From Haliotis cracherodii (lineage: Eukaryota): a stretch of 64,000 nucleotides of DNA. Each line of letters opens with the position of its first letter. Within the stretch, counting starts at the first letter, position 1. The DNA lies in the NCBI RefSeq assembly GCF_022045235.1, contig NW_027266267.1:33170001-33234000 (forward strand), written 5' to 3'. This document shows, piece by piece, positions 7,317 through 19,234 of the stretch. Both the position numbers and the translations under genes were made by a program. Below the pieces are notes generated by a model that did not search any database, had not been told where the DNA came from, and worked only from the letters and a program-made list of their open reading frames with translations.

Positions 7317-8545
7317 GATGTCAGAGAAGCCAGTTGTACTTTAGTCTCAGAATGTATGAAAGCTCCCTGGATGTCTCGCTTGATGCGAATTGGTTGCGCT
7401 TGATGTCAGAGATGCCAGTTGTACTTGAGTCCCAGGATGTATGAAAGCCTTGATAATGCAAGCTGCTGATATATTTCAGCCCCAGAATGTATTGGAGGTC
7501 CTTGGATGGTGCAATGAAAAGAAAGTTGATGACCCTGATGTTAGTTAACCCAGGTGCACCTCAGTCTCTGAATATATCCAAGCTCTTTGAAATACTTTGG
7601 ATGAATTAAGGCTTTCGCTTGGTCAGATACCATAGAAAGTCCACTCGTTTCGTAAAAATGGTATCTAACGAGAATGAGTGTAGTATTCTCTATATATGCC
7701 ATGCACAATATGAGTCCTAATTTTTGTGCTAGAGATTCATTTATAGTTTCAAGACAAAGGTCTTAAGGATGGCGAGACAACGAACAATACACCTGGTGAC
7801 TTGTAGCGTAAGATGTGTAAATAAAAGGAAATAATAATAATTAAACAATTAAGTTCTAAGCTGTCTGAATAAAGAAAAAAGAAGGTAAAGAATCTGCCTT
7901 GATAACTCAAAATCAAGTTTCACCTCCTAATTTCAAATAATTGTTTCAAAACAGGATTTGTGCATGATTTAATCCCCTGTTCAATTGCTTGATTTTACAC
8001 ATTGATACCTCAATCAGGACTATCATCTTCACATCAAATTAAAGTATTACTTGGTTTCCTTGTTTAGGGAGAATAATAAATCCCTCCTTCACGGGCCACT
8101 TCATTGCATCCATGTGCAAAAGATGACACGCCAGTCTGTCAATGGAGTATGCAAAACTCACACATGAGCCACATTCGATACACATTTGGTTGCATAGCTT
8201 GATTCCAACGTCATACACCACTTCTTCTTCAGCCGCGTGACCACGTGAGTTATACATGTGTGTAAATAACACAAATAGTAGTAACATCTTCCCAAAATTC
8301 CTAGGTTCAAGACAGACTGTACGAGGGCAGCTTGGATTACTCAAAAGAAGCAGGCCAGCATCCCTTGATGTCACACAACCAAGATATATTTCAGTCTCAG
8401 AATCTATCCAAGCTCTTTGAAAGACTCTTGATCAGCTTGGGTGAGATGATGCTCCGCCACCTAGCTGCCTGGTCTCCCACAACCCAGATATACTTCAGTC
8501 TTAGAAAATTTATCCAAACTCTTTGAAAAAAATGATGTGGTTGAG

Positions 8546-8938
8546 AGTAGAGAGAAAGTAATACCTTCCGGACAAAAGCATTCCTGTGGAGCGTGGAGCA
8601 CCAACAAAAGCATTCTTGTGGAGCATAGAATTTCCAACAAATTCCTGTGGAGCATAGAATTTCCAACAAAAGCATTCCTGTTACCTTCCGGACAAAAGCA
8701 GTCCTGTGGAGCGAGGAATTTCCAACAAAAGCAGTCCTGTGGAGCATGGAATTTCCAACAAAAGCATTCTTGTGGAGCGTCAAATTTCCAACAAAAGCAT
8801 TCCTGTGGAGCATTGAATTTCCATCAAAAGCATTCCTGTGGAGCAGCATTCCTATGGAGCGTAGAGTAAAGAAACAAACAAAAGCATTCTTGTGAAGCAT
8901 ACCACAGAGGCCAGTCAATACCTTTCACACAATAGAAG
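8546..8938 (+). repeat. Left TIR of Maverick, built from ~33-bp subrepeats (AAAAGCATTCCTGTGGAGCATAGAATTTCCAAC-like)
   Basis: Reverse complement of 18299-18556 with more internal subrepeat copies; similarity ends at ...CTTTCACACAATAGAAG. Confidence 0.9.
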
Positions 8939-9163
8939 TTAACAATAACATTCCAGGAACAACATTTCATCCACTCATAGAATGTATGGTGCGATGAATA
9001 CTCAGTAACCAATGAAACGCTAAAGGAAATCAAAGTACACCAATGAAATTCAACTTTATGGAAGTTAAGCAGTGTTTTACTGTTGAAGCTTTCATTTGAG
9101 CTTAAACAGCGATCTTGTCAACAAGACAAAATCTTCACGCCAGTATACATCTCGAATCTGATT

Positions 9164-9673
9164 ATGGGAACCCGAACAAGTGACAAGTATGTATTTTTTT
9201 ACACGAGAACTTCAGTGTTTAGTCAACATTTTGCTACTGAGATTGTTATCAAAGGAATAGCATTTAACTGTGCTGAGCAGTATTACATGTATAAAAAAGC
9301 TTGTATGTTCAGAGATTGGGAAACTGCGCATAAGATTTTAAAGTGTGTTTCTGCCACCGAACAAAAACGTTTAGGTAGAAGTGTGAGATGTTTTAATCAA
9401 CGCCAATGGGATGCTGTGAGTTCCAATGTGGTGTATGCAGCATCTTTAACTAAATTCACACAGTCTGTTTTTCTGACGAAACAACTGTTAGGCACTTTTC
9501 CCAAGATCTTGGTAGAAGCGAGTCCGTATGATCGTGTGTGGGGTGTGGGTCTATCACTGCATGACCCTAATATTCTTAATCCATCTAAATGGAAAGGCAG
9601 TAATAGACTTGGTCAGATCTTAATGATGGTTAGAAATGAAATAATGAACACAGAGCCAAGTGAAAACTTATGA
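9164..9673 (+). CDS. NADAR / YbiA-like family protein (169 aa from ATG 9164), element-encoded
   Basis: Motifs FSQHF, FNCAEQYYMYKKA, QKRLGRSVRCF, KFTQ, LVEASPYDRVWGVG and GSNRLGQILMMVR are typical of NADAR. ORF is uninterrupted. Confidence 0.92.
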   Translation: MGTRTSDKYVFFYTRTSVFSQHFATEIVIKGIAFNCAEQYYMYKKACMFRDWETAHKILKCVSATEQKRLGRSVRCFNQRQWDAVSSNVVYAASLTKFTQSVFLTKQLLGTFPKILVEASPYDRVWGVGLSLHDPNILNPSKWKGSNRLGQILMMVRNEIMNTEPSENL

Positions 9674-9707
9674 CTTTAAATGTGTTACAGTGATGTAACT
9701 TGCTATT

Positions 9708-16546: not shown

Positions 16547-16919
16547 GCCGTATAGAGAGTGTGTTACTAAAAACTCGATATTGATTAAAAATGACAGAGT
16601 AACAAGTGGTGGCTTTGTGGATTCGTTCTTGTTAAGTCAATAGGGCTGCTGTCTGGTCAAACAGGGGAGTATTAAAAAACGTACTAATTAAAAATCGTAT
16701 ACCATCACTCACAAGCAAAGTATAGTGAGTCAGAAGTATATGTATACACCATTTGTATGCGGGGTGTAACAGTTGATACCATTTGAAAAGAACAAGGCAA
16801 CATAATGAAGTAGTTTTTCCCGTGAGAAAGTGACAACATGCTGAATCACCTTACTTGCAGAGTGAGTATAAATATAACGTGTTAGTGGTTCATTTCGGGA
16901 GAAGACACTTTACTCGAAA

Positions 16920-17186
16920 ATGTCTGACAATCACAACCACACTACGTTTGAGTGGGCTGCTGGCCATTGGCTGTCCATCAACTTGTTCCGGGATGATGCT
17001 TGGGTGCATCTTTCAAACTACAACAGCAAAAAGGAAAGGAAAACCATTTCCTTGAAAAGCAGTGTATTTAGAAACCTGATTGAAGATCGCGAACAAATTA
17101 TATCTGCTTTGGAGGACTATTTTCAGTGCTTTGGCTATTATTATTATTATTATTATTATCATTATAATTATTATTATTATTATTAA
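16920..17186 (+). CDS. PC4-like (ssDNA-binding/coactivator) small protein; 3' end obscured by (TAT)n
   Basis: WLSINLFRDDAWVHLSNY...KTISLKSSVFRNL follows the PC4 pattern (V.V..F.G...V.IR.Y...KGISL....W..L). TATAAATA upstream near 16867. Confidence 0.55.
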   Translation: MSDNHNHTTFEWAAGHWLSINLFRDDAWVHLSNYNSKKERKTISLKSSVFRNLIEDREQIISALEDYFQCFGYYYYYYYYHYNYYYYY

Positions 17187-18298
17187 TTTACCCTTCCTTT
17201 TCAGCCATCGTGGGGTGCAATGCTCGGTGAGACGAGAAAGGAAAAGACCGCTTCGGCGTAGATTGCATCGCGGGTATTATCGACACATACGCGAGCATCT
17301 CACTGTGTTTTCTAAAATAAAAGCATATTTTTAATCAGAATGTGTGTATGTTTTATGTTTCAATTCGCAGTTATTCGCTCTCATGGTCTATCAATGTGAT
17401 ATGAGCCACTAGTGTGATACGAGTTACCTCCCTTGGATCACGAGGGCAGGCCGCTCGCTTCACCCGTCTTTCGGTGTATGTATTTATGCCAGCCAGCGTT
17501 CATTGTTTCTTCACTGTCAATAGTGTATTACCTCCCTTACACCGGTAAGCCGTTCGTCTACAGGTATCTAGTGTAGCCGAACGGTTTGACCGTTGTTTTT
17601 CCAGCTAAGTTTACTACATGATGATATATAAGAAAAAATTAAATCCAGCCATGTACAATTGATGGAATAAATATGATTAAACCAGATATGAACTGAGCGA
17701 ATGGTTAATTCAAACGGAATATATGGAGGAATGATTAATGAAACAGTGTTGTACAGTCATAAGGTAAGTTCACTTATTTTTATTATTACTATTACATCTA
17801 TTATTTATATGTCATAAAGCAGAAAACATACGAATTACACATCTGCAGATGGGTAAGTTCTAACATAATGGCGAAAACAAGTAACAGCTATATTATCTAG
17901 TTGGTGATCGTCTAAAAGCAACATTTAACCCTTAATGTTACGTTAGCACACTGAAACAGATAAAAAGTTAAAGAGTGACAGAAATGTTAATAGATAAAGG
18001 TTAATAGATATAGGTGAATGAATACCGCTATGAACAATAACATAATATTTTAACACTTAGTGAAACGTGAATGAAGTAGAGAAAAATGTTAATAAATGAA
18101 TTGACATCGGTGAAAGGGTTAACAGGTTCAGCGGCTAAAACCCGCACACGAATAGATTTACTCTTGCGTGTAAAGAGTGGGTGAGAGAGAGCTACCCCTA
18201 GTGTATTGATACTAATGTGCGGTGACATAGTTACATGTTTGAACAGAGCGAATATATACAGAGCCAGCCTTACTGCTAGTCTCCTTTAGCAAAATTTG

Positions 18299-18556
18299 CT
18301 TCTATTGTGTGAAAGGTATTGACTGGCCTCTGTGGTATGCTCCACAAGAATGCTTTTGTTTGTTTCTTTACTCTACGCTCCACAAGAATGCTTTTGTTTG
18401 TTTCTTTACTCTACGCTCCACAGAAATGCTTTTGTTAGAAAAATTCCATGCTCCACAGGAATTTGTTGAAATTCTATGCTCCACAGGAATGCTTTTGTTG
18501 GTGCTCCACGCTCCATAGGAATGCTTTTGTCCGGAAGGTATTACTTTCTCTCTACT
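18299..18556 (-). repeat. Right TIR of Maverick (copy 1)
   Basis: CTTCTATTGTGTGAAAGG...TTCTCTCTACT, followed by TSD GTTGAG. Confidence 0.9.
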
Positions 18557-19234
18557 GTTGAGACTGCTATTGGTTCTCCACATTCCAGATAGTCTACCTT
18601 CACATTTTGTTATAGATCTCCTTATATGGCGCGATGGAAAGTCAGTTTTATGTACCTCCAGGCAAGTCAGCAATGGAATGTCTATAACATACTCAGAACT
18701 GGCATGACAGCCTAGTGGAAACACAACGATATCTACCCCAAAGCCATTTAGTGATGGGTGTCAGTATTCAGATAAACACGTAAAGCTATGATTTATGAAC
18801 GTGATCAATACATTCTACTTACACCACTTAAACATATCTCCATAATTCAAACTCCGTTTATGTATGGGAGACAGATAGTCATGGTTTGCATAAGATGCCA
18901 CTATATACACTCGTAAAAAACAACAACGCACAGGTAGTGTTTTAGTAAGTTTATTGTATCTAATCAAGTCCATATGTTTAATTTATTATCATAGATACAA
19001 ATAAGAAAGCTAGGAGCTCGATAGTCATATGTTGTCGTGGTACTGAAAACTTTCATTGTCATGTCATATAAGGCCACAAGGTAGCGCTGAACTCAGCATC
19101 TCGTGTGACCGCCCCGGCCAGCAATCATGGCTCCTCGGCACTGACCTGATACGAATTCTTTCCTCGGAATTCTGTTCCATTCACCTTGAAACGCGTTGAC
19201 GTACACGTCGATCGAGTTCATCCCAGAGGTGTTC

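Follow-up and report, generated by a model that had tools for sequence, protein, structure and literature searches.

Structure and gene content of the window copy

The stretch of abalone DNA analysed here (the window, 64,000 nt) contains a Maverick copy at positions 8546–18556 (10,011 bp), hereafter the window copy. Its termini are AGT...ACT, and the long TIRs with AG-rich ends and the 6-bp TSD by which Mavericks are recognized are both present. Blocks of 89 and 94 nt match between the TIR arms at 97–98%, and the repeat array that they surround is unequal in length. A sequence-only reading of this DNA had described a fully bounded Maverick of about 10 kb, and both TIRs, the termini and the TSD were verified. 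The following features were found:

8540–8545, no strand: left TSD, GTTGAG, a perfect match to the right TSD
8546–8938, plus: left TIR with an array of ~33-bp repeats inside; terminal features of subfamily G
8939–9060, no strand: subterminal stretch with subfamily-G states at 8970, 8976, 9041 and 9060
9164–9673, plus: NADAR-domain accessory gene, frame open (PF08719, 5.4e-44)
9753–10331, plus: ORF without known family, frame open (no match in Pfam or PHROGs)
10512–11649, plus: retroviral-type integrase with chromodomain, three frameshifts and one stop (rve PF00665, 2.7e-10; chromo PF00385, 8.9e-8)
11649–12077, plus: probable minor capsid (penton) gene, one stop
12080–13141, plus: small-ORF stub fused to the major capsid gene (start lost, one frameshift)
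13147–13356, plus: cysteine protease remnant, its catalytic core removed by a private 285-bp deletion at 13207/13208
13490–14155, plus: A32-type packaging ATPase, frame open (E 0.0012)
14230–14541, plus: BIR (IAP-like) accessory gene, frame open (1e-22)
14641–15569, plus: two overlapping ORFs without known family, the first frameshifted, the second open (no match in Pfam or PHROGs)
15722–15891, minus: 3' remnant of a gene truncated by the ~5.1-kb deletion
15891/15892, no strand: junction left by the loss of ~5.1 kb with the entire pPolB gene of the minus strand (0–1 nt end homology)
16189–16546, minus: host SINE-like repeat, with a 13-bp TSD at 16176–16188 and 16547–16559
18159–18556, no strand: right end with subfamily-G states, including the right TIR (18299–18556)
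18557–18562, no strand: right TSD, GTTGAG
19232–28900, plus: two extra tandem copies of 14389–19231 (right part of the element and 675 bp of host flank), post-insertion

Integrase and the major capsid protein (MCP) had been assigned to the plus strand from the sequence, and both assignments hold, the former through its rve and chromo matches, the latter through the fold predicted for the frame of a sibling copy. No sequence match for the MCP was found in PDB. The sibling frame (433 aa) gave a predicted fold with a pLDDT of 84.5 (31 when folded from a single sequence) that resembled the MCPs of mavirus, Sputnik and iridovirus (E ~1e-16); by this model it is a double jelly-roll MCP, truncated in the window copy, where a private deletion of ~590 bp at 12159/12160 fused the small-ORF stub to the MCP gene. 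The penton candidate at 11649–12077 had no match in Pfam or PHROGs, and its position and a motif make it a putative penton gene. The protease frame of a sibling aligned weakly with ASFV S273R (E 0.2), and its gene order fits a cysteine protease. The two Pfam matches of the ATPase (E 0.0012 and 0.00029) were both under Pfam's cut-off, while its gene order fits; both Walker motifs carry substitutions relative to a sibling. Integrase, penton, MCP and protease genes are all broken, and the window copy is now dead. The NADAR and BIR genes were absent from the gene list of the sequence-only reading. The impression of a PC4-like protein at 16923–17120 found no support in the libraries, including Pfam and PHROGs.

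The tandem triplication spans 14389–28900 and yields two additional right TIRs, and the TSD is repeated after each of them. Since its units diverge from each other by 0.90, 1.02 and 0.33%, an assembly artefact is unlikely.

The polymerase deletion and its recurrence

A six-frame scan of the window copy for pPolB motifs gave only three matches, all non-polymerase; the same patterns detected motifs A and C in a sibling. Searches against the window and the four other deleted copies gave nothing below E 0.4 with six sibling pPolB pieces (tblastn) and no match with the deleted block (blastn). The absence of a DNA polymerase, as claimed from the sequence, is thus confirmed, and no degenerate pPolB remnant, which that reading had named as evidence against its view, was found in 15570–18300. 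Nor did this interval contain an ORF for an alternative replication gene, a trait of Polinton-like viruses/Tlr1. The block missing from the window copy has a PF03175 match (4.2e-9) in a sibling; it measures 4.6–5.8 kb in 12 of 13 siblings and 11 kb in one. The junction is clean relative to sibling copies, and no replacement replicase is present. Without pPolB, the window copy is therefore a deletion derivative of the Maverick/Polinton family and not an autonomous member, with a size when mobilised of ~11 kb vs. ~15.5 kb for the parent subfamily, as calculated from the copy alignments. Gaps at 17120 and 17640 relative to some siblings do not belong to this event because S-type copies bearing pPolB also lack these segments.

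The left break was tested in 21 rows: three join the right side directly (the window copy, C23b and C34), 16 run on into the pPolB block, C9 is broken at the identical base with more sequence lost beyond, and C2 lacks the anchor, with 22 further bases gone. At the right break, 4 of 17 rows were joined and 13 were not. C9 and C34 are incomplete copies, and the family counts, taken from one assembly, are lower bounds. TSDs at four of the five deleted loci are all different (GTTGAG, GCCAAA, GACCTG and GGTTTG), the right end of C34 being lost and leaving no TSD comparison there, and nine compared flanks had no cross-matches among them. One internal deletion thus occurs at several loci with differing TSDs, as in a non-autonomous family, and the same genome holds autonomous partners with matching ends, namely the 16 copies with the pPolB block and the same TIR family. 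One further junction match, with two mismatches, was discounted: its position, C13:3074307, is not within the family, and matches of this quality arise by chance (control 7).

The SINE sits at the identical site in all four deleted copies that retain the site, 300 bp from the deletion junction. It is absent from 8 of 8 pPolB-type copies that could be scored by both anchors; anchors were missing in 8 of 20 rows. Genome-wide, its junction pattern gave six matches, all within those four loci (control 0).

The sequence-only reading had left the choice between a post-insertion deletion and a lineage replicated in trans, and had proposed the same junction at loci with different TSDs as the test. Such loci were found, with unrelated flanks; the second option is favoured, and the pPolB deletion as a private event did not stand. 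Private deletions are not in themselves foreign to this family: large ones are common, and the two other deletions of the window copy (in the MCP region and the protease) are private and post-insertion. But an identical junction with 0–1 nt homology and the same SINE at four loci, with 16 other copies showing no break at this position, leave practically no probability for a locus-private deletion or a recurrent hotspot, and the differing TSDs and flanks for segmental duplication of one deleted locus; we regard all three as refuted. Because the same deletion sits at five separate places, the polymerase was likely borrowed from intact relatives. We consider it very probable that the window copy belongs to a five-copy set of a pPolB-less Maverick derivative for which intact members of its own family supplied the polymerase in trans, each copy then integrating separately.

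Mosaic ends, lesions and proposed history

The window copy had the subfamily-G state at 6 of 8 end sites vs. 7 of 107 interior sites, and C2 at 5 of 8 vs. 8 of 89, with the S state at 18318. C23b, with its left end deleted and one scored end site, had 1 of 1 vs. 6 of 107. No end site was in the G state in C34 (0/6) or C9 (0/8). TIR features agree with this painting. Fisher values for end vs. interior (1.5e-5 and 8.9e-4) are optimistic because the boundary was drawn after inspection of the data. In the window copy and C2, the left switch from G to S lies within one common 300-bp interval (9060–9355) of an arm that is 7 kb long; on the right, both switch within 18016–18159. These two copies and C23b have exclusive changes in common at 17889 and 18016, and at 9128 where covered. 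All three combine a subfamily S interior with subfamily G ends, a likely footprint of the helper. Late-G pairs had a pN/pS of 0.25 in pPolB and 0.23 in the remaining genes, compared with 0.65–0.70 within the S and deleted copies; these ratios indicate that the subfamily G polymerase evolved under purifying selection, i.e., that the helper was alive.

Ectopic gene conversion, with a deleted SINE-bearing provirus overwriting full-length interiors but sparing TSDs and three G-type end sets, would account for the different TSDs and the mosaic with no helper, and the likeness of the copies (95–98%) would suffice for it. Four events of 9–10 kb would be required, however, and the switch points of the window copy and C2 fall in common intervals on both sides; the exclusive changes of the three copies fit one recombinant copied onward, and the terminal branches of deleted copies are as long as in ordinary copies. 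We therefore regard conversion as improbable. Movement independent of the polymerase, in cut-and-paste style, with the element excised and reinserted by the integrase it encodes or replicated by host enzymes, appears very improbable. No integrase lesion is common to all copies, and the helper protein is known only indirectly, both in agreement with such movement; yet it does not account for the replacement of both ends by those of a lineage whose polymerase was under selection. In most copies, moreover, the two ends carry identical terminal variants, as predicted by protein-primed replication with end repair and as in adenovirus ITRs.

Small frameshifts and stops were private to single copies in 40 of 41 cases, the only shared one being a +1 in an A-run common to two copies; integrase and virion genes were therefore likely still intact in the template that was mobilised. 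Private substitutions numbered 216 non-synonymous and 60 synonymous; with a ratio of sites of about 3.8, this points to neutral decay. The five deleted copies were not recovered as a clade in the SNP tree, a star with low support, and segment trees grouped the four junction copies in 1 of 6 cases (support 0.73). With this topology, SNP trees were not taken as proof of monophyly. Only ~4 substitutions are exclusive to the deleted group, one of them, in the BIR gene, exclusive to all five copies, so the case for monophyly depends on the deletion and the SINE. The window copy and C23b pair with a bootstrap of 77% and have 11 further changes in common, mostly non-synonymous (5 of 6 coding ones).

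The deleted genome might have arisen in a virus pool replicating during one germ-line infection with mixed S and G genomes, with all five copies integrating nearly simultaneously and no provirus re-mobilised. This single burst is possible though rather unlikely: the star phylogeny, the very short stem (~4 substitutions) and overlapping singleton rates (0.87–1.16%) agree with it, and the nesting of C9 and C34, then C2, then the window copy with C23b (the 11 common changes) does not; SINE insertion would also be easier in a long-lived nuclear template. A single burst still requires a polymerase in trans and differs in timing only.

Under the preferred reading of repeated mobilisation in trans, ~5.1 kb was first cleanly lost from a subfamily-S genome with no substitute replicase, and a host SINE inserted 300 bp from the junction, so the element DNA was a retrotransposition target inside a host nucleus. 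The template would have retained intact origins and integrase, capsid, protease and ATPase genes, needing from the helper only pPolB with its terminal-protein part. One branch probably acquired both subfamily-G ends by recombination, thereafter integrating at least three times. The window copy and C23b would derive from another unselected stage and a further copying round, as suggested by their 11 mostly non-synonymous common changes. Independent decay of each copy followed, with the right half of the window copy tandemly triplicated. There is no active copy, and all evidence is historical; from this fossil pattern, trans mobilisation of the pPolB-less family is likely.

Relation to known systems

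Like non-autonomous DNA transposons, the derivative has an internal deletion, retained its ends and apparently moved in trans; unlike them, it kept nearly all genes, including the integrase, and lost only the replicase. Non-autonomous Polintons were reportedly treated by Kapitonov and Jurka in 2006. Defective interfering viral genomes are deletion derivatives that retain origins and need a helper polymerase. The abalone derivative is likewise a deletion form with replication origins retained, but it is integrated and inherited, and known here from the genome sequence alone. It did not overrun its helper, as it makes up 5 of 21 informative copies; younger subfamily G copies arose later, and strong interference is not suggested. 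To our knowledge, virion particles have not been reported for this Maverick family, nor has Maverick movement in animals ever been observed. Tentatively, and with considerable doubt, the derivative could be seen as a satellite genome of an animal Maverick virus, making its own virions, integrating by itself, parasitising the helper's polymerase, travelling in particles and switching helper by capturing the two origins of a co-infecting subfamily.

As described in the accessible text of PMC8097293, autonomous Mavericks/Polintons have the same TIRs, AG-rich end motif, 6-bp TSD and integrase, capsid, protease and ATPase genes; the derivative differs in lacking pPolB and in its size (~11 vs. ~15.5 kb), where a variation of ~10% is given for Mavericks. 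The same text reports purifying selection on replicating lineages with most copies decayed, as found here; it treats defective copies as fossils in decay and does not speak of a deletion family that was amplified. A virion module without pPolB is shared with Polinton-like viruses/Tlr1, most of which, according to the part of PMC5499653 consulted, have another replication gene; in the abalone, pPolB is not replaced, and a pPolB-bearing parent at ~97% identity is present in the same genome. A close likeness exists to butterfly polintons without polB, with a LINE (Daphne) or gypsy LTR as cargo, in the available sections of a 2026 preprint (10.1101/2025.02.07.637071): these are also TIR-flanked with a host retroelement aboard and several similar insertions, and their authors infer continued mobility and ask how they are mobilised. 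In the abalone, by contrast, the retroelement has not taken the place of polB, and the ends indicate a particular helper subfamily; junction, TSDs, SINE site and gene lesions were compared base by base, beyond the butterfly report as far as consulted. End capture does not appear in sections 12 and 13 of that preprint, and no report of it for a polB-less Maverick was found in the literature covered, which did not extend to subscription papers and Repbase entries. The parts seen of PMC3014272, PMC11414722, PMC6431247 and 10.1101/2023.08.22.554363 contain no such family.

The abalone family offers a readable fossil answer to the question of mobilisation left open in the available sections of 10.1101/2025.02.07.637071. 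pPolB likely acts in trans, and a template lacking only this gene could integrate repeatedly, take a host SINE along and swap ends with a coexisting subfamily; such an exchange would imply a single germ-line nucleus in which two Maverick genomes were replicating. Screens demanding pPolB beside integrase will overlook such families. A common junction, different TSDs and painted ends provide a simple screen for hosts with live elements.

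Element structure and the missing pPolB block

The sequence-only reading had described a 10-kb element that was fully bounded and without a DNA polymerase. Both points held. The copy in the window (window copy) has both TIRs, AGT/ACT ends, and GTTGAG on both sides. No pPolB remnant was detected in it by motif scan, tblastn, or blastn, and the same motif patterns were positive on a sibling.

Features of the window copy (window positions)
8546-18556: Maverick element, 10,011 bp, AGT start, ACT end, GTTGAG TSD
8546-8938 and 18299-18556: TIRs, two blocks 97-98% identical around a repeat array
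9164-9673: NADAR accessory gene (Pfam)
14230-14541: BIR (IAP-like) accessory gene (Pfam), frame open in all five deleted copies
15722-15891: 3' remnant (last codons) of the gene adjoining pPolB, the rest lying within the missing block
16189-16546: SINE-like repeat, 13-bp TSD
14389-28900: tandem triplication, unit 14389-19231, about 4.84 kb, head to tail

Pfam detected NADAR, integrase core, chromodomain, BIR, and a weak A32 ATPase in the window copy and gave no match on the capsid gene. For the capsid frame of a sibling (433 aa), 203 homologues were found; among those with a named source, abalone proteins are the nearest (97% to a Haliotis protein), which makes an abalone the likely host. The predicted fold of this frame resembles the major capsid proteins of mavirus, Sputnik, and iridovirus. 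A small ORF at 16923-17120, present in the S and G subfamilies and in the deleted copies, had no family match.

The TIR search of the same genome gave 50 matches. Besides the window copy, 22 loci were compared; a small match, C6:4371495, was left out. Siblings aligned to the window copy with about 92-98% identity and carry additional sequence between window 15891 and 15892, measuring 4.6-5.8 kb in 12 of 13 and 11 kb in one; this block contains minus-strand pPolB (PF03175, 4.2e-9) and most of the adjoining gene. C2H2 zinc fingers were present at L002:2618-3382 (-), at the upstream end of the sibling pPolB region. On many contigs of the genome, younger Maverick families distinct from this one contribute dozens of long, uninterrupted pPolB frames of about 1290 and 1430 codons; the window-copy TIR matched none of their loci.

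A deletion junction and SINE-like repeat shared between loci

Traced across loci, the junction was found beyond the window copy, at sites with different TSDs: GTTGAG (window copy), GCCAAA (C23b), GACCTG (C2), and GGTTTG (C9). Among 21 rows at the left break, 16 copies run on into the pPolB block, and the window copy, C23b, and C34 are joined to a right side that is identical to the base. In C9, the break has the same position, with a further 1.6 kb gone, and C2 has the right side of the window copy with 22 additional bases gone. The deletion ends share 0-1 nt of homology, which rules out a repeat-driven deletion hotspot. C34 breaks off at 17613, with no right end detected in the next 22 kb. 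No cross-matches were found among nine flanks.

Four copies (the window copy, C2, C23b, and C34) carry the SINE-like repeat at this site, and none of the eight pPolB-type copies with both anchors found does (8 of 20 rows were without an anchor). The junction pattern of the repeat gave six matches in 1.18 Gb, all at the loci of these four copies (control, 0). In C9, the SINE region is gone; this copy carries two group-exclusive substitutions plus a third at 18011. Shared junction, different TSDs, and the SINE in four copies support a non-autonomous lineage replicated in trans, one of the two origins proposed beforehand, the other being post-insertion deletion. SNP trees did not resolve the five deleted copies as a clade.

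In public contigs, the junction was crossed by records from X4 (organism A), X5 (organism B), and X9 (organism C), among the 4 of 22 listed runs compared, with overhangs of 60+30, 29+29, and 60+29 letters; since these fall below the 31-letter bar, occurrence of the deleted form in three organisms is only a hint. Run X15 (organism E), also among the four, had the undeleted form alone.

Subfamily ends, with a putative helper and mobilised template

The pPolB-bearing copies split into S (star-like) and G (100% bootstrap), and the interiors of all five deleted copies are S. The G state was found in the window copy at 6/8 end sites vs. 7/107 interior sites, in C2 at 5/8 vs. 8/89, and in C23b at 1/1 vs. 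6/107; C34 (G at 0/6 end sites) and C9 (0/8) are S throughout. The end/interior boundary was set after data inspection, and Fisher values are therefore optimistic. TIR features (base 7, base 54, right-array unit layout) give the same split. The same S-interior/G-end mosaic could result if a deleted donor had overwritten G-type proviruses by ectopic conversion; this requires several 9-10 kb tracts, all stopping in the same short intervals, and we consider it improbable. The G-type ends are probably the trace of a helper.

The G copies have in common two extra stretches that S lacks, one of about 3 kb (at window 17640) and one of about 0.6 kb (at 17120), seen in L002:4924-8600 with matching stretches in L004, L006, L019, L030, and L036; one copy carries there a private 600-bp insert with a weak zf-RVT match.

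The end donor appears to have been similar to early G, since the two non-G end sites of the window copy are changes confined to later G copies. Singleton rates were 0.93-1.31% in early G and 0.87-0.91% in G-ended deleted copies. The G lineage replicated under selection: pN/pS in late-G pairs is 0.23 for other genes and 0.25 for pPolB, compared with 0.65-0.70 for S copies and deleted copies. Another 11 exclusive changes, scattered across 9 kb, are common to the window copy and C23b, and 5/6 coding ones are non-synonymous, which suggests a further unselected stage plus another copying round.

With one sibling as a ruler (one indel belonging to it was left out of the count), the five deleted copies have 41 small frameshifts or stops. 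Forty are private; the other is a +1 in the integrase A-run, common to the window copy and C34. Large deletions are also private (in the window copy, about 590 bp in the capsid region and 285 bp in the protease). Since the lesions are private and the private substitutions (216 non-synonymous, 60 synonymous) are near the site ratio of about 3.8, the lesions represent post-insertion decay. The moving template was probably missing nothing but pPolB and the truncated gene beside it.

We regard the five copies as a real Maverick lineage, small, extinct, and probably helper-dependent, which provides unusually direct fossil evidence of replication in trans. Non-autonomous Polintons were reportedly treated by Kapitonov and Jurka in 2006. 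Because the Polinton definition in PMC5499653 demands pPolB and integrase, the window copy is a derivative, not an autonomous member. PMC8097293 regards defective vertebrate copies as fossils and size as constrained. Butterfly polintons without polB, with LINE or LTR cargo, seem to have remained mobile according to a preprint, which asks how they are mobilised (bioRxiv 10.1101/2025.02.07.637071); like them, the window copy is without pPolB and carries a host retroelement, in this case SINE-like. End capture by a polB-less Maverick was not reported in the portions of the literature searched, and the preprint's extended figures may bear on novelty.

Local triplication and other repeats

The triplicated unit consists of the element's right-hand 4.2 kb plus 675 bp of host flank, with pairwise divergence of 0.90, 1.02, and 0.33%. 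The right TIR followed by GTTGAG occurs in every unit, giving two additional right ends at 23401 and 28222. The triplication followed insertion. It is local, since its host flank was absent from all other loci compared. In one sibling (L037-L038, C13:16778031-16788419), a separate 3.26-kb tandem triplication affects the left end. Five unrelated tandem-repeat arrays lie at window 6009-6839, 31697-32439, 35834-37570, 42584-43866, and 44346-44866.
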